Counted from the stretch's first letter, positions 9,749-30,633 are shown. The stretch: 64,000 nucleotides of DNA from an uncultured Planctomycetota bacterium (GCA_963823665.1 CAWGMQ010000010.1:1312001-1376000); one strand, 5' to 3'. The notes: generated by a model not told the origin, from the sequence alone. Numbers and translations are program-made.

Positions 9749-9779
9749 AAGTCGGGCGCGGGTTCGCCGATCGTTCAGT

Positions 9780-9883: not shown

Positions 9884-9940
9884 ATTTAACGGCAACGCGA
9901 ACACTATCCCACGCCCGTCGCCTCCTTCCGCGAACGCCCC

Positions 9941-12196: not shown

Positions 12197-13514
12197 CGAT
12201 CGACCCTCCAGATTGGTCGTTCCGCGGTCGGGGCAACGGGACCGCCGCAAAAGATACGCACTCTTGTGCCGATGCTACCTCGTCTTGCGACGATACCATT
12301 TGCAGCACTTGAACTTGCGTCGAATCGTCCGCTCCGTTTTCCCGGGTTAAGGGAGCAATTCGGGTAGCACCCTCGGTTCCGGTCGCCGCTAGGGCTTCTG
12401 CTTCCGGCCGCGGCTTGGGAGCCAGGTCCGGAAGTGCCTGCACAGCACCGTCGATATCGAACCTGGACGCTTTGGCGTAGATACCGATGGTCAGCTTCGG
12501 GTCAGAGTGCCGGGCAAGCACCTGGCAAGTCTTTACCGACGCTCCGGACGCGACGATATACGAGATGTAGCAACCCCGCAAGCTGTGAAAATCAACCACC
12601 CCGGAATCGGTCTCGTAGGGAATGCTGGCAGCTTCCAGGTCGATCCGCAGCATTTCGGCCGTCCGATTCGTCAACGTCCCGAAGATCGCCTCTCCTGGTG
12701 CCTTCTGGGCCAGCCACGGGCGAACTTGATCGGCCAGAGCTTGCGCCAACGGCTGCACAGCTTCCTGTCCGTTCTTCGTGTAAGCAGCCCGGCAGCGAAC
12801 GGTAGGAGGCGACGCGACAAGTTTGAAGTCCTCGGGTGTCAGGGATCGCAGTTCATCGGCTCTGAACCCGGTTCCGAGTGCCAAGCTGTACAGCACGGCG
12901 CGCTCAGGGCCTTCGATACCTCGGAAGATTGGCCCGCGCTCCGCTGCCCGCACCACCCGTGCGGCTTCCTCTGGAGTCATAGCCCGGCGAACCCGCCGCC
13001 GGTCGCCCTCCGAACTCGTGGTGGCGAGGTGTGCAAGGTGGTGATCTCGAGCCCGTCCATCCTTCCAGAGCCATCGGCTGAACGCCTTGACCGAGCGGAT
13101 GTAGTGATTGATGGTTTCGGTACTTAGCCCTTCACTACGAAGTACCACGGTCGCGTCAAGGGCCTTCGAGAGCGACAAGTCAGATATCCGCCGGCTCTTG
13201 GTCAGCTCGAGCATCCGGCTGACTTGCGTCGTCGTCGTGAGCGCGTGTCCGCTGTTGCTGCCTTTGGCTGCCAGGTATCGCCCATAATCCGCGGCGTGCT
13301 CCGCCAGGGGCTTGGCCTCGTGCTTCTGGTAGGCAAGATCCCGCGGGTCGATCTGTCCGTTCTTGATCTTGCGGGCTTCCGTCTCGAGCTTGACCGCCAG
13401 CTCTTGTGACGCTCGCTTGTCGGTGTAGCCCTTTTTCTTCCGCCGGTCGCCGTTGGCGTCGAAGTAAAGAATCGTGTAGCAGTCTGCGCCCTTGGCCTTG
13501 AAAACCGATGCCAT
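12138..13514 (-). CDS. int: Tyrosine recombinase/integrase (458 aa as integrated; last 37 aa host-derived)
   Basis: GTGFRADEL (R), TKN (K), DFHSLR (HxxR), LARHSDPKLTIGIY (H, Y); N-terminal arm-binding-like MASVFK...YTILYFDANGDRRKKKG. Confidence 0.95.
   Translation of the reverse strand: MASVFKAKGADCYTILYFDANGDRRKKKGYTDKRASQELAVKLETEARKIKNGQIDPRDLAYQKHEAKPLAEHAADYGRYLAAKGSNSGHALTTTTQVSRMLELTKSRRISDLSLSKALDATVVLRSEGLSTETINHYIRSVKAFSRWLWKDGRARDHHLAHLATTSSEGDRRRVRRAMTPEEAARVVRAAERGPIFRGIEGPERAVLYSLALGTGFRADELRSLTPEDFKLVASPPTVRCRAAYTKNGQEAVQPLAQALADQVRPWLAQKAPGEAIFGTLTNRTAEMLRIDLEAASIPYETDSGVVDFHSLRGCYISYIVASGASVKTCQVLARHSDPKLTIGIYAKASRFDIDGAVQALPDLAPKPRPEAEALAATGTEGATRIAPLTRENGADDSTQVQVLQMVSSQDEVASAQECVSFAAVPLPRPRNDQSGGSIDVAPQAEAVSPSSFAGRDP
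12253..12270 (+). repeat. Left attachment site
   Basis: GATACGCActcttGTGCC, 15/18 identical to 28139-28156; lies inside the 3' end of int. Confidence 0.75.
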
Positions 13515-13515
13515 G

Positions 13516-13719
13516 TCACTTCGCCTTTCTCGTGGTTGTGATCCGCAGGCCCAGTAATTCGGCCAGCTTGTCAAGATTCGCCAGCGATAGCCCAGCTTGC
13601 CCGTTGACGAATCGAGACATCGACGCCCCGTCAATGCGCGTCCGCCGGCAGATTTCGTAGTGCGTCAAACCTGATTGCTTGACCGCTTCCCGGATTTGGT
13701 CAGTCAACGTATCGCTCAT
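13516..13719 (-). CDS. Cro/XRE-like HTH regulator
   Basis: LTDQIREAVKQSGLTHYEICRRTRIDGASMSRFVNGQAGLSLANLDKLAELLGL; stop lies 1 bp before the int start. Confidence 0.85.
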   Translation of the reverse strand: MSDTLTDQIREAVKQSGLTHYEICRRTRIDGASMSRFVNGQAGLSLANLDKLAELLGLRITTTRKAK

Positions 13720-13826
13720 CTCAGCACCATCCACATCGCGCCAGCCACTCCCACCAGTAGCGACAACAGCGTCAGGTCAACCCCCACGTCGATGATTGCC
13801 AGGGTTGCACACTTCAGAATTCGCAT
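13716..13826 (-). CDS. 36-aa single-TM peptide
   Basis: MRILKCATLAIIDVGVDLTLLSLLVGVAGAMWMVLR; GAGAGGGGG RBS; ATGA overlap with the HTH gene. Confidence 0.55.
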   Translation of the reverse strand: MRILKCATLAIIDVGVDLTLLSLLVGVAGAMWMVLR

Positions 13827-13868
13827 TTCCGCCCCCTCTCGTTTCGTTATTCTCACTGCCATGATGGA

Positions 13869-13897
13869 AGTCTATGCTTTGCTTGTTTGAAAATCAA
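13869..13897 (-). promoter_or_regulatory. Candidate sigma70 promoter for the peptide-cro-int operon
   Basis: TTGATT-17 bp-TAGACT on the minus strand. Confidence 0.45.
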
Positions 13898-14298
13898 CGG
13901 TGCAGCGATGGAATTCCGCCCGATTTTTCGGACTCCTTCCAGATCGGTTAGAATGTGCACGTGATTATACTATCATACATAGTGAGCGTACACGTGTACT
14001 CCCCCGTAAACGGGCATTTCTTGCCACTAAGTGCACACCATTTCGCCACCCCCTTAGAGCGCAAGGGGGTCGCGCAATTGGCTTGGCATCCGCCCTCCAA
14101 TCGGCGAAACTGACCACCATGAAAGCGCTCAAAGGGTCGGCGGTTTTGCTGCCATCGTCGGCAGTATGATCTTCTACGCGTGGCTGCGCCGCGGCATCCG
14201 TGGCTCTGGCTTGGGATTTTCGCCCCGGCGCCGCAGGTAAAGCGCCCGCCTCAACCAGCTCGAGCGCGGGCACCTCGACCCTTGCTTTTCTAAGGCAC

Positions 14299-14790
14299 TC
14301 AATCGGCCGATGGATCGAACATCGATGCCGGCTTGCCCAGAGCCTTAGCAATCTTGGAAATCGTAGCGTGCGATGGGCTGTGCTTTCCGGTTTCAAGTCG
14401 GCTGATGTGGCTTTGAAGCAACCCCGCCTTCTGTGCAAGCTGCGCCTGCGTTAGACCGGCGGCTTGACGCTCCTTGGCGATCCGCTTGCTGATGAATGAA
14501 ATCCACGCCAAGAGCCCCGACTTCGGCGAATTCGGCTCCGATGGGCAGTCCATCTTTCGCGAACCTGATGGCGCCTGTTCCAGGATTTCGCGCATCGTCA
14601 CGACGCAGCTTTCAAATTCCTCAGGATCTGCGGTCGGCAGTACCTTGACCAACTCGAAAAGATCGTCCCTGTCATTCTGGTTGAGACGCTGCACGCGATC
14701 CAACACGATCGCGACGGCCATCGTCAAAGCCTCATGGCTAAGATTGGACTGCGCAGAATCTAGTGGTCCGTGAAGCTCCTTGGTAGGCAT
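14299..14790 (-). CDS. HigA-like XRE antitoxin
   Basis: C-terminal RQAAGLTQAQLAQKAGLLQSHISRLETGKHSP HTH; downstream of a RelE-like gene. Confidence 0.8.
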   Translation of the reverse strand: MPTKELHGPLDSAQSNLSHEALTMAVAIVLDRVQRLNQNDRDDLFELVKVLPTADPEEFESCVVTMREILEQAPSGSRKMDCPSEPNSPKSGLLAWISFISKRIAKERQAAGLTQAQLAQKAGLLQSHISRLETGKHSPSHATISKIAKALGKPASMFDPSAD

Positions 14791-14845
14791 GCTATCCCTT
14801 CCGAATTCAATATAATCGAATAATCTTGCGTGGGGCTCGCGCGGG

Positions 14846-15259
14846 TCACGCCGCCGAATAGCCGCCATTTCGATAGTTTCTGGCCCTCCTTCGCATCCGA
14901 ATCTTCGCACCGTTCGGAGTCGGTCCGTCATTCTGTTTCTTGATCCCGCCCAACACGACGATGATGGTTCTGTGCTTGTCGAGCAGAAAGAATATGCGGA
15001 CGTTCATCCCTCCCAAGATACCGCCCTTGTCACGTAGCTCGAAGTAGTCTTCGATTGCACGGATGTCGGCGGTAACGCTATGTGAAGGATCATTTTCCGT
15101 AGCCAACTCCTTGAATTGGAGTGCCAAGTGGTGATATTGGGCTCGGTTCACGAATCCCATTACTTCGTGGTACCCCTCGTTGAGAATCCGGACGCTCCAC
15201 CGATAGCCAGGCGGCGGTCCGCCCCCCTGCGTCACGCCAACCTTGACCTCTTTCGCCAT
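14846..15259 (-). CDS. RelE/HigB (Gp49-like) toxin
   Basis: DYFELRDKGG..NVRIFF....IIVVLGGIKKQNDGPTP pattern; toxin-first gene order. Confidence 0.8.
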   Translation of the reverse strand: MAKEVKVGVTQGGGPPPGYRWSVRILNEGYHEVMGFVNRAQYHHLALQFKELATENDPSHSVTADIRAIEDYFELRDKGGILGGMNVRIFFLLDKHRTIIVVLGGIKKQNDGPTPNGAKIRMRRRARNYRNGGYSAA

Positions 15260-15292
15260 ATTAATCGTCCTTTATCCCCAGGCGCCTTGAGG

Positions 15293-15362
15293 ATTATACA
15301 ACAATCATAGTGCGCTTCAACAGTGTTCGCTACATATTATACAACGCAACGGTGCTACTCAA
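15293..15362 (-). promoter_or_regulatory. Duplicated -10 elements upstream of the TA operon
   Basis: GTTGTATAAT twice on the minus strand (15293-15302, 15336-15345), each preceded by TTGA(AG/GT). Confidence 0.55.
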
Positions 15363-15557
15363 GATTCTCGCCTGTTCGTTGTGCGCCCTTGAATTCGAGC
15401 CCGATGGCGAGCCGCCTACCCCTTCTCGTGCCCCGTCACGTAAACCCCGGTCCGCGCGAGCTTCGATATCGGCGCGCTCTCGGTCGCCCGTCCAATCCCT
15501 CGACCGAAGCGCCGCGGGCTTCACAGCGAGGCGTCTAGGCGATGGAATCCACGTCAT
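15330..15557 (-). CDS. Hypothetical protein
   Basis: ATGA-coupled to the upstream gene; no recognisable motif. Confidence 0.3.
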   Translation of the reverse strand: MTWIPSPRRLAVKPAALRSRDWTGDRERADIEARADRGLRDGAREGVGGSPSGSNSRAHNEQARILSSTVALYNM

Positions 15558-15757
15558 CGTCGCTTGCTCTTGGCTGCGTGCCGGAATGGTAACGGTTTCG
15601 CCGTTCCACAATCTGGGCAGACTGCCCGCGGCCCGTTGTCGCTGGCCCGGATCACAGTCACCGCCCCGCACTGGCACGGCGACCCGGAATCGCGCCGCGG
15701 GTCCACCGTCCCTGTCGCCCTCTGGCCGCTCCGGCGTTTCCCCAGGATGATCTTCAC
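15554..15757 (-). CDS. Small Zn-ribbon protein
   Basis: CQCG...CPDCG; GTGA overlap with the upstream stop. Confidence 0.55.
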   Translation of the reverse strand: MKIILGKRRSGQRATGTVDPRRDSGSPCQCGAVTVIRASDNGPRAVCPDCGTAKPLPFRHAAKSKRR

Positions 15758-16032
15758 CGCCGGCGCTCCCATCCCCGAATCCAAAAGCAAACTGCCAGGT
15801 TTATGAGGCACACCGCCGCGCTTCCGATGAAAAACGTCCACGCGATCGGTCCCTGTCCGTTGCGCTGTTGCAGCCAGAGCCCCGCCAGTGCCATTGCCAT
15901 TGAAGCCGTTGACGTCATTTCAAGCACCAATCCAATCCGGTCGCTCCGGCCCGCGGTTTCGGGCAGCGCTTCGACCAGTTCGTCCACTTTCGCCTGGCTG
16001 TTGCTCTCTGAACTGGTTTCGATAATCCGCAT
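15754..16032 (-). CDS. Two-TM membrane protein (possibly holin-like)
   Basis: GAGGAGG RBS; two hydrophobic segments and a basic C-terminus (RGWERRR). Confidence 0.6.
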   Translation of the reverse strand: MRIIETSSESNSQAKVDELVEALPETAGRSDRIGLVLEMTSTASMAMALAGLWLQQRNGQGPIAWTFFIGSAAVCLINLAVCFWIRGWERRR

Positions 16033-16064
16033 GGAAAGCACCTCCTCGTGGTTGTGAACAAACC

Positions 16065-16364
16065 TCAGTCTGGAATCATCCCAGGATATGGCGGGCATGC
16101 CACCGGCTCCGTGGGGGCATCGCACTCCCCGCCCCCGCACCGTTGGCATTTCTTCACCACCGGCGTAGGCAGTCCGAGCGCCGCGGCCGCTTCCTGCACC
16201 TCGGCATCCGTGGTCGTGATTTCGCCCTTCGCTCCGTGCCACTGCTTGACGAACAATGCCGCGTAAGCAGCCTGGCTCCAATGGTCGCCCAGCTCGTGGA
16301 CGAGTCGCTGAAAGTGCGGCTGATGCGCGACTGCCTTTTCGATTTCAGGTAGCGTGATCGTCAT
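16065..16364 (-). CDS. Hypothetical element protein
   Basis: 99-aa ORF, ATGA-coupled to the upstream gene. Confidence 0.6.
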   Translation of the reverse strand: MTITLPEIEKAVAHQPHFQRLVHELGDHWSQAAYAALFVKQWHGAKGEITTTDAEVQEAAAALGLPTPVVKKCQRCGGGECDAPTEPVACPPYPGMIPD

Positions 16365-16762
16365 GATTCAACCCTCTCAAACCTGCCGATTGGGCAACGC
16401 TCGGTTGAGGCCCATAACTTCAGAGACCCGCAGCCACAAATTCGACATCGTTGCGAATCGGCGTTGTAATGCTCGCATGCCTGGCATAACGCTAAACGTT
16501 GCTCATGGATTTCTGGCGAGACTTTGACTGCATGGCCAGTCAGAACAGCACCCGCCACTCGAGCGGCTGCGCCCAGAGCGTTTACGGCCATCTGCGCCAT
16601 GGTCGGAAACTCCTGCGGTGCACCCGTGGCGATCTCGAGAACGATTTCCCGATAGCGACCGCGCTGCCATTCGTCCGGATTCTCATCCGAGCAAAGCCAG
16701 CGATAACGCTCGTGTTTTGTTTTTCCGACCACGATGTCTAGGGCTTCGGGTAGTGTCATCAT
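16361..16762 (-). CDS. Cys-rich Zn-binding phage-type protein
   Basis: RLALCQACEHY...RCRICGC..KL...ERCPIGRF; ATGA-coupled on both sides. Confidence 0.7.
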   Translation of the reverse strand: MMTLPEALDIVVGKTKHERYRWLCSDENPDEWQRGRYREIVLEIATGAPQEFPTMAQMAVNALGAAARVAGAVLTGHAVKVSPEIHEQRLALCQACEHYNADSQRCRICGCGSLKLWASTERCPIGRFERVES

Positions 16763-17583
16763 TGGGTCACCGTGACGCCAATAGTCGGTCCCGTGCAATT
16801 CCCATACACCGTGCAGAAACCACCGTCTCCAGCACCATTGGCGCAGCCGCTGCCAATCAAAAAACTTCCGGTTTCGTTTACTGGGTAGCAGGAGCTTTGT
16901 TCCGGCCCCACCCCGGTCATATTGGTGGATATCTCGCTGCTGAAACTCGAGCCGCTCGTATCGGGGCACCCGTTCGAATCGGTTGGGTAATTGTGCGGAC
17001 AATACACGGACGCTCTATCAATGCTGGCGCTTATGCAGGGATTGTAGCTGTACTGTAATTCCACCGTTCCGCCCACGCATCCGCATGCCGCGCCATAGGT
17101 GTAATTGATGCTGCCGATGTAATTCAACGAGCTTCCCGTACCAACGATACTTAATGTTCCGTAGGGGTAAAGTGTGACTGCTCCGACAACGGCGTCGGTA
17201 AGTGTGAGTTGATCGGGGTACATTAACAGAAGGGCTTTGTTTGGTGACGCTGTGCTCCCTGTTACGGTAATGTGCTGTGTCGTCGGAGTCGTGAGATAGC
17301 CAGACGGCGCCGACATCGAAAAGTAATATGTGCCCGTGCTTGACACTTCCCAAACAAACTGGCCGCTCGAGTTAGTCGTCCCTGACGCAACGACGGTACC
17401 GCCTGAATTGTTTTGCTGGACAGTTATCGTGATCCCTGAGAATCCGCATATCTTTGTGCTGTCACACCACCATACCTGAACGGTGTGATTCGCACCGCAC
17501 CCACAACACGTCCCAATCGACCAGGCGCCGTAGGCGGCATAGAGTAGGCAGACGAGACCAATGATCAACAGGTAGACCATCAT
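16759..17583 (-). CDS. Cys/Thr/Gly-rich beta protein with N-terminal hydrophobic anchor (putative virion or surface protein)
   Basis: MMVYLLIIGLVCLLYAAYGAWSIGTCCGCG, then prealbumin-like VVASGTTNSSGQF...GTYY; A/T-richer codons. Confidence 0.7.
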   Translation of the reverse strand: MMVYLLIIGLVCLLYAAYGAWSIGTCCGCGANHTVQVWWCDSTKICGFSGITITVQQNNSGGTVVASGTTNSSGQFVWEVSSTGTYYFSMSAPSGYLTTPTTQHITVTGSTASPNKALLLMYPDQLTLTDAVVGAVTLYPYGTLSIVGTGSSLNYIGSINYTYGAACGCVGGTVELQYSYNPCISASIDRASVYCPHNYPTDSNGCPDTSGSSFSSEISTNMTGVGPEQSSCYPVNETGSFLIGSGCANGAGDGGFCTVYGNCTGPTIGVTVTQ

Positions 17584-17801
17584 CGCCCCTGCTGCTCCTG
17601 CTGGCCAGTCTGGTAGATGCCAGCGCCCTTCACCTGATCGGTCGGCACCACGAGAACGTTGCCGGCCTTCAGTTCCACGAGACAGAGAATCGGGTGATCG
17701 GGTCCGCGGTCAAGAATTCCGAGCCAGAGCCCCGGCCCCTTGTCGGTGACCTCGACTGACCGCGGCGTGTTGAAGATGCCGTGTTGCGTGATCACTTCCA
17801 T
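17580..17801 (-). CDS. Small beta-rich hypothetical protein
   Basis: 73-aa ORF with GAGGT RBS, coupled to the next gene. Confidence 0.6.
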   Translation of the reverse strand: MEVITQHGIFNTPRSVEVTDKGPGLWLGILDRGPDHPILCLVELKAGNVLVVPTDQVKGAGIYQTGQQEQQGR

Positions 17802-17827
17802 ACCTCAAATCCGGCCCGCCGTTCATT

Positions 17828-18088
17828 TCATTCCGATTCAAGCATATCCCTGACGTCTCCGATCAACGCGAGCGCTTCGGCGAGCACCGACTCTGCTTCC
17901 GTCGGACCCTCGTTCAGCCTCCGGCGGAGACGGTCGTTCTCAGCCTTCAGTGTCTCGTTTTCCGAAATGAGCTGGTTAATTGCAACCAGCGCCTTGCCCG
18001 GCTGCGTCGCGATTGCCCGAAACATCTCCTTGATCTCTCGCTCGCGCGACTTGCTCACGATGTCGGTCATCTTGGCGGGGATCACCAA
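17828..18088 (-). CDS. Coiled-coil hypothetical protein
   Basis: LISENETLKAENDRLRRRL heptads; GGAGG RBS. Confidence 0.6.
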   Translation of the reverse strand: MVIPAKMTDIVSKSREREIKEMFRAIATQPGKALVAINQLISENETLKAENDRLRRRLNEGPTEAESVLAEALALIGDVRDMLESE

Positions 18089-18564
18089 TGTCCTCCTTCT
18101 CGCTCCCGCTGCCGCGCTGCGGCATCTTCTGCATAAGCCGCTTTCCGCTCGCGGTGTTCGACTGCTGAGTCCACCTTGTTCTGCGTGATCAAATAGCCAT
18201 AGATCGCTTCGAGCCTGGCTGTATCTCGTCTGAGCTCCGCAACGGACATGTTGAGCATCCCGGCAATCTTCCTGTCGAGCGCGTCAGTCCCCGCGATTTC
18301 GCCCGCTGCAAGCGCTCGTGCGATTGCTTGATCCGAGCCGGGGGTAACAATGCCCGCCCGGTCTCGCATGCGATCAAAGCGAGCTTTCGTTGCAGCCCTC
18401 TGGAGATTTACTTCGTATGTCGCGATTGCCTGTTTTTTCACCGGCTCAAGCGAGGTCAGAAGCGAGGCGACTTCGGCCATTGCTTCCGTTCGTTTCTGCT
18501 CAGCCACTTCCCGCGCGATGGTCATCATCTGCGCCGGAGTGAGTGCCGCCGTTCGATAGCTCAT
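18082..18564 (-). CDS. Helical hypothetical protein
   Basis: 160-aa Ala/Glu/Arg-rich ORF; GGAGGGGG RBS; ATGA overlap. Confidence 0.65.
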   Translation of the reverse strand: MSYRTAALTPAQMMTIAREVAEQKRTEAMAEVASLLTSLEPVKKQAIATYEVNLQRAATKARFDRMRDRAGIVTPGSDQAIARALAAGEIAGTDALDRKIAGMLNMSVAELRRDTARLEAIYGYLITQNKVDSAVEHRERKAAYAEDAAARQREREGGHW

Positions 18565-18743
18565 TTCCCCCTCCGTTGTGACTGGCGTAGAAAGGCCCCC
18601 AATGGCCCGATGGATTCCACGGTGCTATCGCTGGCCTCTTGACGCTCTTGCTCGAGCCGATGACGCTTCTCAGCTTCGCGCCGAGCCCAGCGCCTGTTTT
18701 CCTTCGGCCGCGTGTCAATTGCCCGGCAGAATTTGTTGTCCAT
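18561..18743 (-). CDS. Small hypothetical protein
   Basis: 60-aa ORF with GAGGT RBS, directly after the capsid gene. Confidence 0.5.
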   Translation of the reverse strand: MDNKFCRAIDTRPKENRRWARREAEKRHRLEQERQEASDSTVESIGPLGAFLRQSQRRGK

Positions 18744-18752
18744 TGGATCACC

Positions 18753-19976: not shown

Positions 19977-19978
19977 CG

Positions 19979-20413: not shown

Positions 20414-20578
20414 GTAGCACCCCTTTCGATGGTCGAATACTAGAGCGAGCCGCGATATCGAATCAAGTGAAGGCGCGAGCAATTCCACTTAATGCTTATG
20501 GAATTTTTGGACACACGCGAGCCGTTTTCGCCGTGTTTTTCGTGGCTCGGATGTGTGATTCGTCCAGAAAATCGCCCC

Positions 20579-20827
20579 CTAAACTGGCGGATTATTGGAC
20601 GTTCCATCTCGTTCAGCGAGCAATTCGGCGAGCCGCCGGAAACGTTCGTCGGTCTTGAACGTCCCCGCGTTCAGCCAGTTATAGAGCGTCGATCGGCTGA
20701 TTCCCGCAGTGTCGGCAGCTTCGTTGATGCTCAAGCCGCGGCCGAATGCGAAACCGAGAAGCAACATCGTCTCGCCGTCGCAAGCCGATGGTCTGCCGCG
20801 TCTGTTTTTCGTTTTCGCTTGTGGCAT
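20579..20827 (-). CDS. Small HTH DNA-binding protein
   Basis: RGRPS...GLSINEAADTAGISRSTLYNWL. Confidence 0.75.
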   Translation of the reverse strand: MPQAKTKNRRGRPSACDGETMLLLGFAFGRGLSINEAADTAGISRSTLYNWLNAGTFKTDERFRRLAELLAERDGTSNNPPV

Positions 20828-20839
20828 GGCGTCGCGCCC

Positions 20840-21181
20840 TTACATGATCTTCGTGAACATCGGATGGTCGTCATCGGCTTGCATGAACATCCGCCATCTA
20901 TACTCTGCTTCTATGGCCCTTATGAGCTTTCCCATAGCGTCGGGATCATCGATGGGTATACGTTCGGCTCGACTGTCACACTTGGCCCAGCACACGTCGC
21001 AGCACTCGCAGAAGCAAATGATTTGACCTTCTATCACTTTGCTCGAGCACTTCGCGACCGATCCGCAGACTGCGCAATAATCCTTTGCTGGTTTGACCGG
21101 CCGTGCCGGCGCGGGTTCGGGTTCGGGCGCACGCGGTTTAGGCGCCCCTTTGAGTCTGTGCCGCCATGTCAGGTTATTCAT
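20840..21181 (-). CDS. Zn-finger hypothetical protein
   Basis: CAVC...CFCECCDVC. Confidence 0.6.
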   Translation of the reverse strand: MNNLTWRHRLKGAPKPRAPEPEPAPARPVKPAKDYCAVCGSVAKCSSKVIEGQIICFCECCDVCWAKCDSRAERIPIDDPDAMGKLIRAIEAEYRWRMFMQADDDHPMFTKIM

Positions 21182-21184
21182 GGT

Positions 21185-22027
21185 TCAATCCTCATCCCAG
21201 AGTGAAGGGTCACGAAGGTTGCCCACCGCGGCGGGGTTGTGCCGGACGGCATAAGGGGGAATGAAACGCGGGTCTAGTTCGTCGTCGTCGTCGTTTTCTT
21301 GCTCGAGCTCGCGCTTACGCTCCGCCACCTTCTCGACCTCGAGCGCTCTGGCTTCCCAGGGTTGCAGATTCGTTGTGTCGGCCGTGATTGTCATGGCCAT
21401 CCATCGTTGACGTCCAAGCCAGAGCGCGAGGCTCACACTCATAACGCAGTCGTCATGATCCGAATTGAACGCTTCGGCAGAAGTGTTGCCGGTTTTGGCG
21501 CTCACCCGGATTTTAAAATCCCTCAATTCTTTTTTGAGCAATCTAGCGTGCTCCTGATGCTTTCCGTTCCGCATCGGGCATATCTTTACCCGACGATTGC
21601 CGAGTGCTTCGGCCAATGCGCTCACGAGCTCAACCTTGGCGACGTTCCACATGCGCCGGCCGCGTGGCGCCGATGTTGCGCCCCCGGTTATGTTGATCCC
21701 GTAGACTCGGATGTGCTCGTATGGCGCGAATGCGGTAACGCACTGCTCAAACACCGCCGTTCCACAGCCGGACATATCGATCACCACAATGGGAGCCGGT
21801 CGAATGTCGCTTCTGGTTGCGATGCGTACCAGGTCTTTTACCACGGCGCCGTACTCTGTTTTTAACGGCCAGCGACGTAGGCCCACGATCTGAAACGAAT
21901 AGATGGAATTCCCCCGGCTATCGCGTTCGGGAAGGCCCTGCGCGTCCACGGCCAGGCTGCGAGCCATTACAGACAACGCGGAAAAGTCCCGGAACTGGCC
22001 TAAGTCCAGCGTGACAAAGTTGTCCAC
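21185..22027 (-). CDS. terL: Terminase large subunit, stand-alone RNase H-like nuclease domain
   Basis: TLDLGQFRDFSAL, VIDMSGCG and DHDDCVMSVSLA acidic motifs; GAGGGG 8 nt before the GTG. Confidence 0.8.
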   Translation of the reverse strand: MDNFVTLDLGQFRDFSALSVMARSLAVDAQGLPERDSRGNSIYSFQIVGLRRWPLKTEYGAVVKDLVRIATRSDIRPAPIVVIDMSGCGTAVFEQCVTAFAPYEHIRVYGINITGGATSAPRGRRMWNVAKVELVSALAEALGNRRVKICPMRNGKHQEHARLLKKELRDFKIRVSAKTGNTSAEAFNSDHDDCVMSVSLALWLGRQRWMAMTITADTTNLQPWEARALEVEKVAERKRELEQENDDDDELDPRFIPPYAVRHNPAAVGNLRDPSLWDED

Positions 22028-22029
22028 GA

Positions 22030-22797
22030 TTAGAGCCCCTCGAGTGCTGTGAGTAATGGCATGCCAGGCGGATACTCGGTTAAAGCCTCAATCGCATCAT
22101 CACCTATTAATTGGTCGCCGTCCTCTATAAAAGCGTTTTCATGTTCCTGTCTGTACAGTGCAGGCCCCAGGATCTTGAGCTCATCGTCCAGGAATCCCGG
22201 CTTTACACGATGCGGATAGTCGACGCGTCGGGCGGAGATGCGTTCCCAGGTCTGCTCCTGATCTTCCCAGCATGCGTAGAAGAACCCCCGCCGGCCCGCG
22301 GGTGTGGAGAGCAGGATTAGGTCGCCGTCTGTCTCCGCCAGCATCGGACGCACCGCAGCCAGCATGCCCTCATCTATACGTGATGCTTCGTCTAATATAA
22401 CCAAGTGTGGAGTGTACCCGCGTGCAGTAGCCGGATCGCCTGGCAAGGCAACCAGCTTGCTACCGTTGGCGAAGTGCAGTTCAGTTCTGAGTTGCTTGAC
22501 CAGCTCAACGGGCTTGGTGCGCTCGTAATACTGAACAGTGCGGTCAAACAGCAACAGCGATTGCCTTTCCCCGATGCTAGTCAGGAGACATTCCGAGCCC
22601 GCGGTGAAGCAAACACGGTGCAAGGCTTTCACCGCAGATACGCTGGTTTTCCCAAGTTGCCGGCCGCAAAGCATAAGCAATCGTTTGCTTGTCGACTGCA
22701 AAGCTTGGCGCTGCCATAAATCTGGTTCAAGCCCCGTCGCCGCGCGAAACAAGTATGTCGGGTCCAGTGCCGCCTTCAACAATGCTTTCCTGTCCAT
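22030..22797 (-). CDS. terL: Terminase large subunit, stand-alone ATPase domain
   Basis: DLWQ (Q motif), GRQLGKT (Walker A), VILDEA (Walker B), LSTP (motif III), YRQEHENAF. Confidence 0.9.
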   Translation of the reverse strand: MDRKALLKAALDPTYLFRAATGLEPDLWQRQALQSTSKRLLMLCGRQLGKTSVSAVKALHRVCFTAGSECLLTSIGERQSLLLFDRTVQYYERTKPVELVKQLRTELHFANGSKLVALPGDPATARGYTPHLVILDEASRIDEGMLAAVRPMLAETDGDLILLSTPAGRRGFFYACWEDQEQTWERISARRVDYPHRVKPGFLDDELKILGPALYRQEHENAFIEDGDQLIGDDAIEALTEYPPGMPLLTALEGL

Positions 22798-23389
22798 CGG
22801 TGCTACCCTCCGAGTGCTCGAGTTGCTCCATCTGGTCGATAACCGCGGCGAGGCGATAACGGTCTTCTGGTGTCTTCACAGCGTCAAGGAGGGCCGCGCC
22901 TTGCAACCCGAACATCGCGACGCTGATGTTCTGGGTAGACCCGCCGATCTTGTTGATGGTCTTGTGCTCTCGCAGTTTGCCCCAGTAGCGATCCATCAAC
23001 AGTTGGATGGCCTTCAGCCGGTCGCCGTGCGTCTCGCCCTCGAGAGCGATATGGGCGAGCTCTTTGACCGCGTCGGCGAGCAGGGTTGGGTGCTCGTCAT
23101 CGATCAGTTGCTTGAACCGGCGTTTGATCCTGACACCTGCTGCGATCCGCGCCGGATCGGGGGTCGCGCAGCTATTGCCCACAGCGAACATGCCGTTCTC
23201 ACCCCGGCCTTCACCCGTGCCGGCCCAGCTCGAGGCGTCCAGAGCGGTCTGCGGGTCCTGCTGTTCGGAGAACACCCGCGGCGCAGGGCGGGCGGGCTTG
23301 GCTGGCTTGGCGCCCTTGACCTTGCGCGGGCCCCGGTACCCTCGAGCGGTACCATGCCAGCGAGGCAACGGCGAGGTGTCAGTGCTCAT
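22727..23389 (-). CDS. Putative terminase small subunit-like protein
   Basis: Immediately upstream of terL; RGENGMFAVGN motif and helical DRLKAIQLLMDRYWGK segment. Confidence 0.5.
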   Translation of the reverse strand: MSTDTSPLPRWHGTARGYRGPRKVKGAKPAKPARPAPRVFSEQQDPQTALDASSWAGTGEGRGENGMFAVGNSCATPDPARIAAGVRIKRRFKQLIDDEHPTLLADAVKELAHIALEGETHGDRLKAIQLLMDRYWGKLREHKTINKIGGSTQNISVAMFGLQGAALLDAVKTPEDRYRLAAVIDQMEQLEHSEGSTDGQESIVEGGTGPDILVSRGDGA

Positions 23390-23404
23390 GGTGGTTGTCC
23401 CCGG

Positions 23405-23761
23405 TTAGTTCCTGGCGCACAGCATGGCCGTTCCTTGTGCTATCCGACGCGCTTCCTCGACCTTCTCCCGAATCTGGTCGATGCGTTGTTCCTGCGCAGC
23501 GAGCGCTTGCTCCCGCGCGACAACGCGACGTTCGTTCTCAGTCTGGGCCCGTATCAGCTCAGTCGAGCCGCACGCGATGGCGCGAACCTCGAGCCCCAGG
23601 GCCCGTACATCGGCCGCCACTCTTTGCACATCCGCAGCCAGTTCGGCTGTCTCGTGCTCAACGTCGGCCAAAGCACACTCAGCCGCGTAGAGTGCCTCAG
23701 ACGCCCTGCGCTGGTCATCTCTCAGGTCGATCAACACGTCTGCCCAGTTCACTGCCGTCAT
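23405..23761 (-). CDS. Coiled-coil hypothetical protein
   Basis: Ala/Glu/Arg heptad-rich; GAGAGGG RBS. Confidence 0.55.
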   Translation of the reverse strand: MTAVNWADVLIDLRDDQRRASEALYAAECALADVEHETAELAADVQRVAADVRALGLEVRAIACGSTELIRAQTENERRVVAREQALAAQEQRIDQIREKVEEARRIAQGTAMLCARN

Positions 23762-23928
23762 GGTGCCCTCTCTCGTTGGGTAAGGGGTCATTTATGGGAA
23801 ACCGGTCCAAGTGCTACTTGGGATGCTGCCGTATAACCGGAATCGTCACAAGTGTCACTGCGTGAATTACTTGCGTCTGTCGGCATCGGATTCTCTCTCC
23901 GATGTTGATTGGTTATCTGTACGATCGA

Positions 23929-24201
23929 TCAGTCATGCCGCTCGCGGATCGCGCTGGCCAGGTCGTGAATCGCGCTGGCGATGGTTGTCGCCGCTTCCTT
24001 GATGGCCTCGCCATGAGCTTCCATTGCGTTCGGGCGAGTCCTCGGATCGGAGCGGAATGAAACACCGAACCAGACAGCCCGTGCCAGGTCATCAAGCGTG
24101 TCGACGATGTTTGCGGCCTCGCCGTTGGCGTCGCTCACATTCGGCGAGGTAAGCGCCGCGGCGAGGGTGTCTGCCAGTCTGTCACTCTTGGATGCGTTCA
24201 T
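23929..24201 (-). CDS. Hypothetical protein
   Basis: 90-aa ORF with AAGGAG RBS. Confidence 0.6.
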   Translation of the reverse strand: MNASKSDRLADTLAAALTSPNVSDANGEAANIVDTLDDLARAVWFGVSFRSDPRTRPNAMEAHGEAIKEAATTIASAIHDLASAIRERHD

Positions 24202-24639
24202 GCGTTAAACTCCTTGCATGCATGACGGTATGGGCCGACGATGGTGAGCCCGGCTGAACGGCCAGAGACTGGCCTTCCACGCTGATCTGCTCAAAAGCCT
24301 GCTGCTCATGGTCAGGCCACGGGATACCATCTGCCTCGAGGCGATTGGCGAGTTCACCCCATCGTTGCCGGCGCTCAATCGGCCATCCAGCGAGATCAGA
24401 AGGTCTCGACCACTTCAAGCCTACAAAACCTACGGAACCGGTTTTGTCTGGTTTCGTAGGTAGCGGGGGGTATCTATCTATAAGAATTTCACTGGCGCAG
24501 AAATACACTCACTCACACCATCATTGATGTACTCTTTAGGGTCTGAATTTTCTGTGTACCTATGGGGTGGATTGCCTACGAAACCTACAAAAGCATCCAC
24601 TGGCTTGATCTGCTGCTTGAATGCATTCAAGTATTTCAT
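24182..24639 (-). CDS. Small replication-associated protein overlapping the origin (probably frameshifted)
   Basis: MKYLNAFKQ...FVGFVG (ATGA-coupled to the DUF3987 gene), then in another frame PTKPDK...WPIERRQRWGELANRLEADGIPWPDHEQQAF. Confidence 0.45.
24420..24592. repeat. Iteron-like 9-bp repeats, candidate replication origin
   Basis: CCTACAAAA 24420, CCTACGGAA 24429, inverted TTTCGTAGG 24452, CCTACGAAA 24575, CCTACAAAA 24584, flanking an A/T-rich core. Confidence 0.7.
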
Positions 24640-26588
24640 GCTTGCGACCACACTTCCTTGGATGGCAGAACCGGATTGATCCACACTTTCTTGGATGGTC
24701 TGCCACCGAACGCGCTCTCTGACGGAACCTCGACCACCTTCACCCATCCGCGGTCTTCAAGGATGCCGATGGCGGTTTCGACGTCATCGACCATCCGCAG
24801 GCCTGACCATCCCTTCTGCGCGACCTCCCGCGGAGTGAACGGATTTGGAAGCGATCCCTTGATCCGCTCGGATAGCGCGACCGCGATCGAGATGTCGCCG
24901 TCCGCGCAGGCCATGTACACCCGCCTGGCGTGCGCCTCGAGCAGGTCACACCATGCCGCGGCCGCTTGAGCTGCCTCGAGGGACACCGGTCCTATCTCCC
25001 ATGCCCTGCATGTCTCGACCAAATGGAAGATCAGTGCCAGCGAGGCCATGAGCGAGCCATATTTCGATAGGTGGTTCTTCATCAGGTCTGAGAGAGCACC
25101 ACCCCGGAGTCGCTGTTGCAGTTCTGTATACCACTGGTTGAAGAACGCTTGAGCGTCATCGGCGAAATTGACGTAGGCCAAGCCGCTATCCTGATCGACC
25201 TTGCATCCCTTATCCGCTGCGTTCATCTGGTCGATCGCCTTGAAGACGTCATAGGCTTCATTCTTCGCCGCGGTATCTGGCCACTGGTCGACATGCACGT
25301 AATCGTCCGGCGGATCCGGATACACCATCACCTGGAAGCGGGGAACGAAACCGTCCGCTTCCTCTCCACTGACGGTGCGTTTCATGTACTGCGCGAGCGG
25401 TCCGGGCTGGATGGTTCCGAGCACCGCCAGACACGCCGCTTCAATGTGCGTCGTGCCGCGCTGGATTCGATCGAATGTGAAAGAGCCGTTTCCATTCCAG
25501 CACTCAAGCAGGAAACCCCGGTCCGATTGGTGACCTTCCCGCTCGAGGCTCTTGAGCAGTCCAAGCAGTTCGTCCCGAAAGACCGTCAACCCGTTCGGAT
25601 TCTCCGCCATGAGCTCGCCAAGCTTCTCGACCGTGAAATCGTTCACGAGATACCGCCGGCACTTCGGCTGATCTTCCTGACTGGTGGCCATCGCATCGAC
25701 CGCGAGCCGCTTTAGTTCGTCCTCCGTCGTCCCCTCCACCTTCGCCGCTTTCTTCAGCGTGCTCTTGGCTGCGTCCTTGCGTGCCGCGGCAACAAGCTGG
25801 CGAGCGGTGTAATCGTTCATCTGTTGGGCGAAGGCGTCCATCGCATCGGCCACGAGTCGCTTGAGCGGACGCATGACGGCCTCGACTGCCGGGGTCTTCA
25901 AGAATCCGGGTGGCCCGACGATGATTCCCCAGAGATTCACCACCACCACCCAGTCATCGTAGCGCTTCGGTCTTATCGCCACCTTCCGGCCGATCACCCC
26001 GCTGAGAGCGACAATCAGCGTCGCCGCAACGTACTCAAACGGAAAACAGCCACGCGTTGCGATATCGCGCAGCCACCCGCGGAAAACCTCTGGCACCATC
26101 TCCGGCACGATGGCAGGGACCGGCTCGAGGTTTGCCGTTATCGGGCGGGGTGGCAGAAGGAAGATAGGGCTTCGAGCCGAAACCTCTTTATCCCTCCATT
26201 TGGTCCGCTTGGCCGCTTCATTCACGAAGTCGTCGCCGTCCACATACTCGCCATCGGCGACCTTCTCGTTAAACCACGCTTTGAGTTGATCGCCGTTGCC
26301 AGCGATTCCGAACGCTTCGCGCAGGTTCAAAGTCCCCACCTGGCTGGCGAAGTAATGGTTGCCGTTCCCTTCGCACCACACCGCCGCCGCGGTCGCCGAT
26401 TCTGGTTCGCTATAGGCAAAGATGATCCGCCGCCGGTCCGCGAACTTCGCAAGCTGGCCCTTCGCCGTGAAGACCTCGATCGCCGGAATGCCGAGCTCCC
26501 GCACCGCGGCTGCAACCCGCAGTTCAATGCACCCGAAAACAATGTCGCCGGGCTTGCCATTCGGGACATGGCCGTTTGATTCGCTCAT
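24636..26588 (-). CDS. DUF3987/YfjI-family P-loop replication protein
   Basis: NLWGIIVGPPGFLKTP, DFTVEKL, FRDELLG, FDRIQRG, GTIQPG, DGFVPRF; C-terminal wHTH with GGRPS. Confidence 0.85.
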   Translation of the reverse strand: MSESNGHVPNGKPGDIVFGCIELRVAAAVRELGIPAIEVFTAKGQLAKFADRRRIIFAYSEPESATAAAVWCEGNGNHYFASQVGTLNLREAFGIAGNGDQLKAWFNEKVADGEYVDGDDFVNEAAKRTKWRDKEVSARSPIFLLPPRPITANLEPVPAIVPEMVPEVFRGWLRDIATRGCFPFEYVAATLIVALSGVIGRKVAIRPKRYDDWVVVVNLWGIIVGPPGFLKTPAVEAVMRPLKRLVADAMDAFAQQMNDYTARQLVAAARKDAAKSTLKKAAKVEGTTEDELKRLAVDAMATSQEDQPKCRRYLVNDFTVEKLGELMAENPNGLTVFRDELLGLLKSLEREGHQSDRGFLLECWNGNGSFTFDRIQRGTTHIEAACLAVLGTIQPGPLAQYMKRTVSGEEADGFVPRFQVMVYPDPPDDYVHVDQWPDTAAKNEAYDVFKAIDQMNAADKGCKVDQDSGLAYVNFADDAQAFFNQWYTELQQRLRGGALSDLMKNHLSKYGSLMASLALIFHLVETCRAWEIGPVSLEAAQAAAAWCDLLEAHARRVYMACADGDISIAVALSERIKGSLPNPFTPREVAQKGWSGLRMVDDVETAIGILEDRGWVKVVEVPSESAFGGRPSKKVWINPVLPSKEVWSQA

Positions 26589-26791
26589 GGGCCCGCCCTC
26601 CGTGGTTGCCGATGGTCGATTACCTCAGTTGGGTTTCCGCAGACCGGACATTCCCAAATCTGCACCTGTCCGCGCACCCCCCGGAGTCGAAGCCGCTCCC
26701 AACATCCGCAGTAGCTTTGTGGCTCCTCGAGTGCACCGTCATCGTCGGTAGGAAATGCCAGGTCACGCTGGCCGCGCAGGGGCTCGCTCAT
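26585..26791 (-). CDS. Small Zn-ribbon protein
   Basis: YCGC...WECPVCG; ATGA overlaps on both sides. Confidence 0.55.
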   Translation of the reverse strand: MSEPLRGQRDLAFPTDDDGALEEPQSYCGCWERLRLRGVRGQVQIWECPVCGNPTEVIDHRQPRRAGP

Positions 26792-27083
26792 GATGGCTCG
26801 CCCCTTTCCTGTTCGGCCCACTCGCGAACAATGCGCGGTGACCATAGGCGCGCCGGCCGACACTTCTATCCGGCCGCGGAAACTCGCCGGTCGATATCCG
26901 CTCCTCAATCAGCCGCCTGGATAGCGGGATGACGGCGAGAATCTGATCCCAACCCCAGAGAAGCATTTCCGAAGGGGGGATTGATCGAACTTTGGGCAAT
27001 TTGCTAGGATCGGGTTCCTGGATAACCTGATCGTTCGCGAGGCCCGGAGTCGCCAGCTCCGGGTCCTTGCTTGCGCACTGCAC
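26788..27083 (-). CDS. AlpA-like regulator/excisionase (1-bp frameshift ~26850)
   Basis: WDQILAVIPLSRRLIEERISTGEFPRPDRSVGR, continuing in another frame as RLWSPRIVREWAE to TGA 26788. Confidence 0.65.
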
Positions 27084-27086
27084 CGA

Positions 27087-27293
27087 TCAGGCCCCCTTGC
27101 TCATGGGAGCCATGGCGCGGGCGATATCGCCCGCGGAATAGCGTGGTGGCACACCCGGCTGCAAATCGATGGCGACGGCGCCGATCGCAGCGAGGCGATA
27201 GAGCTTTGTAGGGCTTAGTCCCGGATGGCGCCGAGTTGCTTCGGCTGCCGAAATGAAATCGGCTTGGGCGGGTTCAAGTGTCGCTGTCGACAT
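27087..27293 (-). CDS. Xis-like winged-helix protein
   Basis: FISAAEATRRHPGLSPTKLYRLAAIGAV...PRYSAGDI. Confidence 0.6.
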   Translation of the reverse strand: MSTATLEPAQADFISAAEATRRHPGLSPTKLYRLAAIGAVAIDLQPGVPPRYSAGDIARAMAPMSKGA

Positions 27294-27422
27294 TGCGGTT
27301 TCCCGGAAGGATGCATAGGCGCGATTCACCAGAGCACCTGGTTGAAACCAGTGCTCACGAGTGAGTCGACTTCCTATGCGGTCCGTCTCCGGCCGCAGTC
27401 AGACTCTGACATTCAGTCTTCG

Positions 27423-27451
27423 ATCATAGAATGACTACTAAGCCATTTCAA
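27423..27451 (-). promoter_or_regulatory. Candidate sigma70 promoter for the xis-rep operon
   Basis: TTGAAA-17 bp-TATGAT on the minus strand. Confidence 0.55.
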
Positions 27452-27453
27452 GA

Positions 27454-27861
27454 TCACATCGGTTGTTTCGGCCAGTACGGCAATTTATCTCGCAAATGCC
27501 ATATCGCGTGGCGGATTTCAAACTGTGGATTATCTGGTCGGCATGAATGGCATGTCGCGTCCGCTCTTTCCATCAGCCAATTGAAGGCGCCCTCGAAGTC
27601 CTCATCGGAGAATTGCCGAGCCGTCCGCCCACTCGTCTGGTTCAAGGTCGGATTGCGCTTGTACCTCATCAACCAAATCGAAATTGTGCGGTACGCTTTC
27701 GCAAAACGCGGTTCATGCTTCTGGAAGTCCTCGTCGCTGGAAGATTGAAGCAGGCCCATCAAGACCCACCAGCTCAATCCCCAGGGTCGCCGCTTCACTC
27801 TACCGAGCAATCGTGACGCTTCGTCTTGAATCAGTGCCTGCACCCGCTTCCGATCGATCAT
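27454..27861 (-). CDS. Hypothetical protein (possible regulator)
   Basis: 135-aa ORF starting 6 bp after the stop of the stranded integrase tail. Confidence 0.6.
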   Translation of the reverse strand: MIDRKRVQALIQDEASRLLGRVKRRPWGLSWWVLMGLLQSSSDEDFQKHEPRFAKAYRTISIWLMRYKRNPTLNQTSGRTARQFSDEDFEGAFNWLMERADATCHSCRPDNPQFEIRHAIWHLRDKLPYWPKQPM

Positions 27862-27867
27862 CTCAGC

Positions 27868-28140
27868 TCACTCCGTTTTGGCCGCGTTCACCACCGCCAG
27901 AATCGCCCGACGCTGCTCCGCAGACAGCCGTCCCCAGGATTCCCGCACCAGCTCGAAGTCCGAATCGTCAGGGAGCATTTTGGGAGCACTTGAGCCACGC
28001 TCCGACGCGTTTCCATGCGTGTCTGTGCGTGATAATACCGCACTGCCAGGCTCGGAAACAACGGAGAATGAAGGCTTCCCGCGTGTCCCCGCGTTTCCGT
28101 GCGCGTCAGTGCGTTCTGACGTGAAAACGTCAAGATCTGA
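27868..28140 (-). other. Stranded 3' fragment of the integrase gene (89 aa)
   Basis: Stop-free frame in phase with int at the att core: (ECVS)DLDVFTSERTDAHG...PDDSDFELVRESWGRLSAEQRRAILAVVNAAKTE*. Confidence 0.7.
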
Positions 28141-28156
28141 TACGCATTCCAGTGCC
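28139..28156 (+). repeat. Right attachment site
   Basis: GATACGCAttccaGTGCC, matching 12253-12270. Confidence 0.75.
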
Positions 28157-28159
28157 AGT

Positions 28160-30613: not shown

Positions 30614-30633
30614 CCCCCCATCAGGATCTTCCC

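Follow-up and report, generated by a model that had tools for sequence, protein, structure and literature searches.

Boundaries, composition and gene content of the island

The window, a 64-kb stretch of DNA from a soil planctomycete, contains a mobile island of 15,886 bp between two unstranded 8-bp att cores of sequence GATACGCA, one at the integrase end (12253..12260) and one at the distal end (28139..28146). Both att ends had been proposed in an earlier, sequence-only reading. The core is only 8 bp and the repeat finder did not list the pair; its position was fixed by a vacant site in a same-genus genome (G029:C4), in which both flanks join at GATACGCA, the left flank aligning at 78% over 1.47 kb and the right at 37/43 nt. 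GC content was 58.6% for the island versus 63.1% for the flanks. Unstranded pairs of GG(G/T)AGCA repeats at ~12354/12365 (12354..12371) and 27974/27985 (27974-27991) are probable integrase arm sites, and no tRNA integration site was found in the 64-kb window. Contig pieces from two soil runs matched flank and island with zero letter differences at a depth of 2-4, which is too low for the absence of an att joint among these pieces to bear on excision.

The minus strand carries all assigned genes and all ORFs listed below. Between the TerL ATPase gene and position 16065 there are 12 junctions, of which 10 show gaps of -7 to +12 nt and two are wider (90 and 26 nt), in agreement with the co-oriented, tightly coupled arrangement described earlier. 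Promoter and terminator counts were not higher than in shuffled sequence.

The tyrosine integrase (12138..13514; PF00589 5e-11, phrog_1 9e-27) has an ORF that crosses the att core, with its stop codon in host DNA. It is followed by a Cro/C1-type HTH regulator (13516..13734; HTH_3/26/31), a 52% homolog of which adjoins a related integrase at G000:C8, and by a probable HigBA-type toxin-antitoxin pair (14299..15259), in which a Gp49/RelE-like ORF (14846-15259; PF05973 3e-4, under the cut-off) would be partnered by an HTH ORF (14299-14931; HTH_3 2e-14). At the operon start (26763..27861) are an AlpA/excisionase-like gene, a small HTH-like gene and a 135-aa ORF; an 80-aa ORF of this region has a 51% homolog in the related island L008. 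The replication protein (24636..26588; PF13148 2e-89, phrog_2373 helicase 2e-30) contains a DUF3987 helicase/primase module. The integrase and DUF3987 parts of the integrase/AlpA/replication module proposed earlier were upheld by these matches; the AlpA label is tentative and comes from a 44% homolog elsewhere in the genome that matches phrog_597 and phrog_66, with no direct family match for 26763-27083 itself.

The remaining ORFs outside the capsid and terminase genes are mostly small. Two at 15330..16281 (15330-15677 and 15754 onward) gave no Pfam, PHROGs or NCBIfam match, the first having a 55% partial homolog in G029:C5. A coupled trio at 16065..17583 consists of a Cys-rich ORF with an Ig/prealbumin fold (16759-17583), a DUF6171-like CxxC ORF (16361-16762) and a 99-aa ORF (16065-16364), with matches to SdrD_B (1.5e-6) and DUF6171 (7e-4); Atlas leads for the Cys-rich ORF were all below 0.9. 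The same trio (47-77%) sits after a tail-completion gene in another G029 island and may be an accessory for the tail tip or adsorption. Behind the capsid gene, four short coupled ORFs (17580..18743; 60, 160, 86 and 73 aa) had no significant Pfam, PHROGs or NCBIfam matches, and none was recognizable as neck or portal; no homolog was found for the 160-aa ORF, and the 73-aa ORF has 80% identity in two G029 islands. At 23405..24639 are a 128-aa coiled-coil ORF, a 90-aa ORF and the gene at 24182-24639, with homologs in G029 islands; the last looks frameshifted relative to a 132-aa homolog.

Capsid and terminase genes and the portal slot

The HK97-fold capsid protein named in the sequence-only reading is present (407 aa, 18753..19976; PF05065 7e-11, TIGR01554 3e-15), with a leader of ~64 aa versus ~107 in the HK97 model. 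Its AF2 model (pLDDT 74.7) gave a Foldseek match of 1e-13 to the RcGTA capsid, and its best structural matches were phage and GTA capsids. Family 3 encapsulins (PF05065) are stand-alone shell genes beside enzymatic cargo, without a terminase; on the grounds of these structural matches and of its position in the terminase operon of an integrated island, the capsid gene was not assigned to them. The HTH gene reported directly before the capsid gene is real and coupled to it (19979..20488; excisionase-type HTH_17, weak at E 0.007), occupies the same position in the related islands L008 and L010, and has a similar N-terminus fused to capsid P0012.

Members of this capsid clade are also found in complete phage heads, where a long capsid gene is accompanied by a second, short one of the clade, which fits a protein working alongside another capsid protein. 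These phage short capsids group with those of the window, L008 and L010 (100/99). Island capsid monophyly was rejected by the AU test (p 0.0075), and grouping of phage short capsids with phage long capsids was not (p 0.078), so that there is an indication, but no proof, of the direction in which the capsid gene moved.

TerL was recovered intact as two genes, an ATPase half (22030..22797; phrog_7579 2e-46) with intact Walker A and B motifs and invariant R46, Q47, G49, K50, D136 and E137, and a 280-aa nuclease half in its own gene (21185..22027; phrog_27743 2e-28) with an intact acidic triad, invariant catalytic Asp residues and best Foldseek matches to terminase nuclease domains. For the TerL pairs dS was near saturation; dN/dS was ~0.2 for the ATPase pair and likewise for the capsid and 73-aa ORF pairs. 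Fusion of the halves by programmed frameshift was rejected, as the frame relation across 18 loci was -1, +1 or 0, the halves are separated by 0.6-1.1 kb at 3 of the 18, and their overlap in the window contains no slippery heptamer. There are two small-terminase candidates, a TerS-like protein (22727..23389) assigned by position and weak similarity (Atlas 0.93-0.94 to viral clusters including DUF5681; a weak E of 0.012 against an HMM of relatives' pre-TerL genes) and an 82-aa HTH protein resembling the TerS DNA-binding domain (20579..20827; phrog_4102 6e-10).

TerL motors act at the portal. Straight after TerL, in the portal's usual slot, is a 113-aa CxxC-CxxC protein (20840..21181), whose counterpart at that position in G029:C4 is a 31% homolog, and the genes across the slot are tightly coupled (gaps of 3, 12, 90 and 2 nt). 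The reported lack of portal, protease, tape measure and lysin was borne out: remnants of portal, protease, tape-measure, tail-tube or tail-completion genes were not found by tblastn with 20 query proteins (best E 0.053), portal and protease HMMs gave nothing significant on all six frames (capsid control 2e-75), and lysins had no match in Pfam, PHROGs or NCBIfam. The two portal searches likewise left no remnant of a frameshifted or cryptic portal, which the sequence-only reading had named as an alternative among the small ORFs. Head-tail adaptors or connectors and HNH proteins had no match in the same three databases, a comparison in which the small post-capsid ORFs were covered by family profiles only, and no release or entry genes were found in the island. 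An intact prophage was rejected, with only 15.9 kb between the att sites and no portal, tail or lysis modules among them.

Related islands and distribution of the two-gene terminase

Portals were found in 0 of 7 assessable family islands (six relatives and the window), a count in which the ORF-based absence calls are weakened by the frameshift-rich assemblies of most relatives; G064 (a 3.6-kb contig ending in TerL) and G013 (one weak match) were left out beforehand. The capsid clade of the window is present in 5/7 islands, a protease in 3/7 and a tape-measure-like gene in 2/7, and 2/7 have TerL without a capsid gene. TerS-like, ATPase and nuclease genes occur together in 6/7; the TerL slot of one island is occupied by another family (phrog_979), and here too there is no portal. 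The island ATPases group as a single clade (SH-aLRT 94) of five rows, one of them taken from a truncated contig, and are 33-59% identical to that of the window. The missing protease is accordingly a property of the window and not of the family, as 3 of the 6 relatives carry one. The terminase may be the constant part across the family, with capsid, protease, tape-measure-like and tail-completion genes as exchangeable hijacking accessories.

Patchy gene content of this kind could also be erosion, in which a cf-PICI-like or prophage head module has lost portal, protease and tail and its remaining genes are on the way out. Relatives retain differing subsets of phage late genes, the window gene at 24182-24639 looks frameshifted, and loci with the same TerL in G557, G561 and G528 have portal and capsid. 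Among two-gene-TerL loci of other planctomycete families, portal and capsid were annotated in 2 of 11 and an unannotated portal-sized ORF lies in the portal slot in 2 more, so that portal loss from a fuller module is possible. Against erosion are the empty six-frame search, the tight coupling across the portal slot, and a portal absence common to seven islands at the TerL divergence given above and with low dN/dS. Recent decay is unlikely, since the related portal-less islands vary in capsid, protease, tape-measure-like gene and TerL family; nor are the islands simple deletion products of related phages, since proteases follow the capsid gene in L008 and L010 and precede it in the phages. No close relative has the portal by which, as the sequence-only reading had proposed, a decayed prophage might be recognized, and erosion is considered unlikely.

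The cargo-like variation of capsid, protease, tape-measure-like and tail-completion genes would also suit an interference or defense function, in which phage assembly would be poisoned by the capsid and the terminase halves, the island itself spreading by other means or passively, and assembly-blocking defenses are on record (PMC10884400, PMC11364771). A decoy would not need both TerL active sites, yet both are conserved, and TerS-like, ATPase and nuclease genes are kept together as in a working packaging module; defense was judged quite unlikely.

Split TerL was rejected as a satellite marker, as true phage contigs and portal-bearing islands share it. In IMG/VR, 47 of 80 loci were scored as split, and 16 of 28 split loci tested had an annotated portal downstream (18 counting phrog_332). 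In viral contigs the TerL family has neighbors from at least six portal families, so that it is not confined to a single portal type. Salinibacter (pSR11 and pSR14, each of which has a tape-measure gene) and Streptomyces have small portal-less replicons that carry this two-gene TerL. No loci came up when viral contigs were scanned with the TerL halves of the window itself, a phylum-wide phrog_27743 search gave weak matches, mostly to long frames, and the nuclease profile had no match in five genomes from other groups.

Probable source of the portal and comparison with known satellites

Because capsid and motor occur without portal or tail, also in divergent relatives, the island is most likely a phage parasite acting on a helper's portal. 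On balance it is probably a PICI-type satellite that remodels the helper head, takes portal, neck and tail from the helper, and relies on its own motor for packaging, a reading consistent with the invariant catalytic residues of both TerL halves and the low dN/dS (~0.2). Upon infection by an HK97-type planctomycete siphophage, the island would excise and replicate; its short-leader capsid would co-assemble with, or partly replace, the helper capsid around the helper portal, giving a small head as with SaPIbov5 Ccm; TerS and the two-chain TerL would cut island DNA and dock on the borrowed portal, with no dependence on the helper's terminase; and the helper would supply neck, tail and lysis. No precedent for a satellite TerL acting on a foreign portal was found in the literature searched. 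Searches of G000, G029, G042, G044 and G045 (completeness 72-93%) found no HK97-type portal (phrog_12 or the L044 portal), so a matching helper would be an incoming phage.

Portal, neck and tail might instead come from a domesticated, GTA-like particle system of the host. An intact 649-aa phrog_145 portal is present in G000 (C2:89763-91712), syntenic in G029, with a dN/dS of 0.056/0.636, similar to a neighboring host gene. Of 121 family genomes, 94 have this resident portal and 90 an SU10-type capsid gene, the two usually separated by ~2.5 kb; the set is family-wide, selected and a possible candidate helper. No description of such a cluster was found in a literature search whose coverage excluded most subscription journals. 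An ORF immediately behind the resident portal shares 41-52% identity (E 1e-11 to 1e-14) with the N-terminus of the ORF at 16361-16762, and a Rhodobacteraceae island pairs the same TerL family with a phrog_145 portal. Genomes of 6 of the 7 portal-less islands have the resident portal, a co-occurrence expected by chance because the resident set is in ~3/4 of the family. The resident capsid, however, is SU10-type, whereas that of the island is HK97/phrog_10-type, with phage relatives that use phrog_12/2662 portals; in the G000 assembly the resident capsid gene is broken into three pieces; and G045 has an island with neither resident gene found (87% complete). This source was likewise thought unlikely. 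If true, the island, supplying its own capsid protein and two-chain motor, would need no infecting phage to spread, and its capsid gene would have been taken up by phages to provide a second head protein.

For the satellite with a borrowed portal, the closest likeness is to classical PICIs, the core of which includes a capsid-morphogenesis gene and TerS and no portal (PMC10085698; Ccm, PMC8569155). Of the five PICI core parts, four can be recognized and TerS is a probable fifth: integrase, primase-replicase and capsid-morphogenesis gene were found, together with a putative AlpA-type regulator, and, as in classical PICIs, portal, tail and lysis genes were not (PMC10085698, PMC8569155). Island size is within the range reported for PICIs (PMC10085698), and the leader is shorter than a helper's, as for Ccm (87 vs 128 aa; island ~64; PMC8569155), so that by analogy the capsid may have a Ccm-like size-redirection role. 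Unlike classical PICIs, as described in PMC10085698, which typically have no phage packaging or structural genes beyond these core parts and use the helper's TerL, the island has a complete two-gene TerL of its own and genes on one strand, and Planctomycetota is not among the host phyla named for PICIs in these accounts (PMC10085698, PMC8569155). The sequence-only reading of a satellite that borrows portal and neck remains the best one, but its comparison with cf-PICIs alone was too narrow: since classical PICIs normally have a capsid gene and no portal, the oddity is the island's own TerL.

As described, cf-PICIs share with the island an own capsid and TerL, probably also TerS, and the lack of a tail; unlike them, the island has no portal or protease and a split TerL that precedes the capsid gene (bioRxiv 10.1101/2022.09.08.507074, PMC10085698), and their head-tail connectors and HNH protein were not seen by family profiles (bioRxiv 10.1101/2022.09.08.507074). 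The 11-kb Mycolicibacterium EPIPs, with TerS, major capsid protein, tape measure and no portal listed, are alike in gene content and form small capsids, as the island may; they differ in a serine integrase, a head-tail adaptor and stopper and no listed TerL, and their description contradicts itself as to whether they encode capsid proteins (PMC12822802). MulchRoom and MiniFlayer have their own TerS, TerL and capsid, with a tyrosine integrase in MulchRoom, but encode portal, scaffold and head-tail adapter (PMC10690885). Haloarchaeal SRCE satellites combine a replication module with a capsid protein, an ATPase or both, but are plasmid-derived, belong with spindle-shaped viruses that have an AAA+ ATPase, and do not involve HK97-fold/portal biology as described (bioRxiv 10.1101/2025.02.15.638363).

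A self-sufficient particle with neither tail nor portal, also suggested earlier, gained no support and is highly improbable. Small portal-less HK97-fold genomes with an integrase and no tail have been described, but have encapsulin-like capsids and ~9-kb genomes, with no terminase in the dominant group (PMC13669383). The HTH domain coupled or fused to the capsid protein would suit such a particle; a TerL that acts at a portal, its occurrence without capsid in two of the seven islands and the lack of detected release or entry genes would not.

A literature search, from which most subscription journals were outside coverage, gave no description of a portal-less satellite with TerL and capsid. 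Satellite TerL in the accounts cited has come from the helper (classical PICIs) or with its own portal (cf-PICIs, MulchRoom, MiniFlayer), and a satellite that combined a motor and capsid of its own with a borrowed portal would be intermediate between these two kinds. The nuclease profile matched 2,867 metagenome clusters at E<=1e-10, versus no match for a Salinibacter member among 50,697 isolated phages, which points to a large unstudied pool, part of it true phages. Neither the core-gene model of PICIs nor that of cf-PICIs accommodates such islands, which may end up classed as prophage debris. A satellite of this kind would test how strictly portal must match terminase and capsid, and whether a TerL that is split in nature functions in two-chain form.

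Boundaries and gene content of the island

The window (G000:C10:1312001-1376000, from a 16.5-Mb genome that is 91.9% complete) contains the word GATACGCA at positions 12253 and 28139. In G029, a genome of the same genus, an empty site was found at which both window flanks join at this word, so the island ends are real and the two att sites proposed by the sequence-only reading were borne out. The island is 15,886 bp long (GC 58.6% vs 63.1%); as that reading described, its genes are co-oriented and tightly coupled, every assigned gene being on the minus strand and most being coupled. Pfam, PHROGs and NCBIfam assigned an integrase, HTH regulators, an HK97-type capsid protein, a TerL ATPase, DUF3987 and, from weak matches, a Gp49/HTH toxin-antitoxin pair. 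Portal, protease and tape-measure genes had been reported missing, and six-frame searches with 20 proteins and three HMMs detected no remnants of these or of tube or tail-completion genes (best E 0.053; control capsid query, E 2e-75).

Just beyond the right att site, window 28130-28645 holds a degenerate fragment that is not present at the G029 empty site, has many look-alikes at 70-78% in these genomes and presumably resembles planctomycete Ser/Thr kinase genes. Host intergenic DNA contains imperfect 20-42-nt repeats spaced 52-74 nt apart (window 9500-9900) and three copies of a 21-nt tandem repeat (window 30556-30618).

Searches of 121 Isosphaeraceae genomes and the fetched stretches yielded six further assessable islands, leaving out those in G064 (truncated) and G013 (a single weak match). 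The G029:C5 island encodes a TerS-like protein, split TerL, capsid and a tape-measure-like protein (so named from matches of 36-39% with tail genes of prophages); the island near 1.76 Mb of G029:C4 has split TerL, protease and a tape-measure-like gene and lacks a capsid gene, and that near 2.98 Mb has a capsid gene and a TerL of another family. The G042 and G045 islands carry split TerL, HTH and capsid genes followed by protease, and the G044 island only TerS-like and split TerL genes. Island TerL ATPases formed a single clade (SH-aLRT 94, quick tree), and pairs of capsid, ATPase and small-ORF genes gave a dN/dS of ~0.2; for TerL, dS was saturated. Portals in close relatives would have meant a decayed prophage; a portal was found in none of the seven family islands, and we consider an eroded head module unlikely. 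The architecture is real, intact and repeated; its anatomy, conservation and distribution are demonstrated. That it forms a self-sufficient tailless particle is highly improbable.

Two other islands were observed. One (G029:C4:1733000-1748434), in tandem with a TerL-bearing island, is a sister island (DUF3987, 64%). It shares the Cys-rich trio with the window island and also has a tail-completion gene (PF11367) and two TerS-like genes, but TerL and capsid are absent. The second G000 island (C8:358000-374059) has a related integrase (34%), DUF3987, AlpA-like and TerS-like HTH genes, and neither TerL nor capsid gene.

Capsid protein and two-gene TerL

The island capsid adopts an HK97 fold in its AlphaFold model (pLDDT 74.7), for which the best structural match was the RcGTA capsid (1e-13). 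Its leader is short, since residue 65 aligns to TIGR01554 position 108. The HTH gene noted directly before the capsid gene is of HTH_17 type by a weak match, with the same order in three islands; a similar domain is fused to the capsid in P0012. The closest viral-contig relatives are a second, short capsid gene of portal-bearing phage heads, located between the protease and long capsid genes. Of 12 phage loci, L009, L043-L050, L123 and L124 among them, 9 have HK97-fold capsid genes in tandem, a short one (island clade) and then a long one, the rest ending too soon or having no second match; family prophages in G098, G107 and G120 have the long gene only. In trees, short phage capsids grouped with those of the window and the G042 and G045 islands (100/99), and long ones with family prophage capsids. 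Monophyly of island capsids was rejected (AU test, p-AU 0.0075). A tree with the short and long phage capsids placed together could not be rejected (p 0.078), so capture of the short gene by phages from islands is suggested only.

The 280-aa ORF following the ATPase has a predicted fold resembling terminase nuclease domains, and active-site residues of both halves were invariant across alignments. TerL is encoded by two separate genes, since across 18 loci the frame relation of the halves was not constant, in three they were 0.6-1.1 kb apart, and no slippery site lies between them in the window. The nuclease profile matched 2,867 clusters at E<=1e-10, the best 150 being mostly stand-alone proteins of about 200-300 aa; a Salinibacter member had 0 matches in 50,697 isolated phages. 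TerL was scored split in 47/80 IMG/VR loci. As a satellite marker, split TerL was rejected: an annotated portal, from six portal families, lay downstream in 16/28 split IMG/VR loci tested. At G540:C1:7600045-7617485 the halves are ~16 kb apart, and within 1.1 kb in another copy.

In other families of the class, 85 ORFs were scanned, mostly picked from a list of 140. Portal and capsid genes occurred at 2 of 11 two-gene-TerL loci, which counts against a clean portal-less class; two more had an unannotated portal-size ORF in the portal slot (one a prophage), and in seven neither was seen. A Rhodobacteraceae island had a portal and no recognised capsid. Salinibacter pSR14 and pSR11, a 16.3-kb Streptomyces virginiae circle with an integrase, and two viral contigs carry two-gene TerL as in the window with no recognised portal or capsid, four of the five having a tape-measure gene, and are probable unrecognised satellites. 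Two cf-PICI-like islands, G561:C1:5102749-5108842 (with an HNH gene between the TerL halves) and G557:C1:7353625-7368823, encode a portal and a capsid protein along with two-gene TerL.

Helper and relation to known satellites

Genome-wide six-frame searches detected no phrog_12 or L044-type portal (L044, a phage contig) in G000, G029, G042, G044 or G045; phrog_12 portals matched in 35/121 family genomes. G000 encodes elsewhere, on C2, an intact 649-aa phrog_145 portal, syntenic in G029 (90% identity; dN/dS about 0.09). It belongs to a resident set found across the family (portal in 94/121, SU10-type capsid in 90/121 genomes) that also has TerL, scaffold and probable tail genes. This set is dispersed in G000 (C2:82119-91712, C4:163117-165031, C8:1999337-2020000) and in both G044 and G120 lies after the same host gene; its adaptor, tail tube, chaperones and tape measure were read from position and had no family matches. 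Parasitism by the island of this domesticated, GTA-like particle system is rather improbable: an island ORF shares its N-terminus with the ORF just downstream of the resident portal, but the resident capsid is of a different type, its gene is in three pieces in the G000 assembly, and G045 carries an island with no resident-set copy detected.

The island is probably a PICI-type satellite with its own capsid protein and motor that borrows portal, neck, tail and lysis from a helper; that such islands are interference modules is doubtful. We infer every step of the life cycle. With a helper present, the island would excise and replicate; its short capsid protein may act beside or instead of the helper's, around the helper portal, as does SaPIbov5 Ccm (as described in PMC8569155). 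Its TerS and two-chain TerL would package island DNA through that portal, and neck, tail and lysis would come from the helper.

PMC10085698 gives classical PICIs five core parts, a capsid-morphogenesis gene and TerS among them, and assigns TerL specifically to cf-PICIs; the island resembles the Ccm type but breaks the expectation of no TerL. For cf-PICIs a portal, a protease and connectors are described (10.1101/2022.09.08.507074), and the island, with neither portal nor protease, falls outside them. The main text on EPIPs lists capsid and TerS, and not portal or TerL (PMC12822802). MulchRoom and MiniFlayer, unlike the island, are described with portals (PMC10690885), and the portal-less small HK97 genomes, also unlike it, as lacking terminase (PMC13669383). 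In archaea, SRCEs are presented as built on the same principle, carrying a capsid gene, an ATPase gene or both (10.1101/2025.02.15.638363). Literature searches found no paper describing a satellite with TerL and capsid and without portal. The contrast with cf-PICIs drawn by the sequence-only reading holds for portal and protease as those elements are described, but a portal-less capsid is not itself surprising; the surprise is a packaging motor of its own in an island without its own portal.
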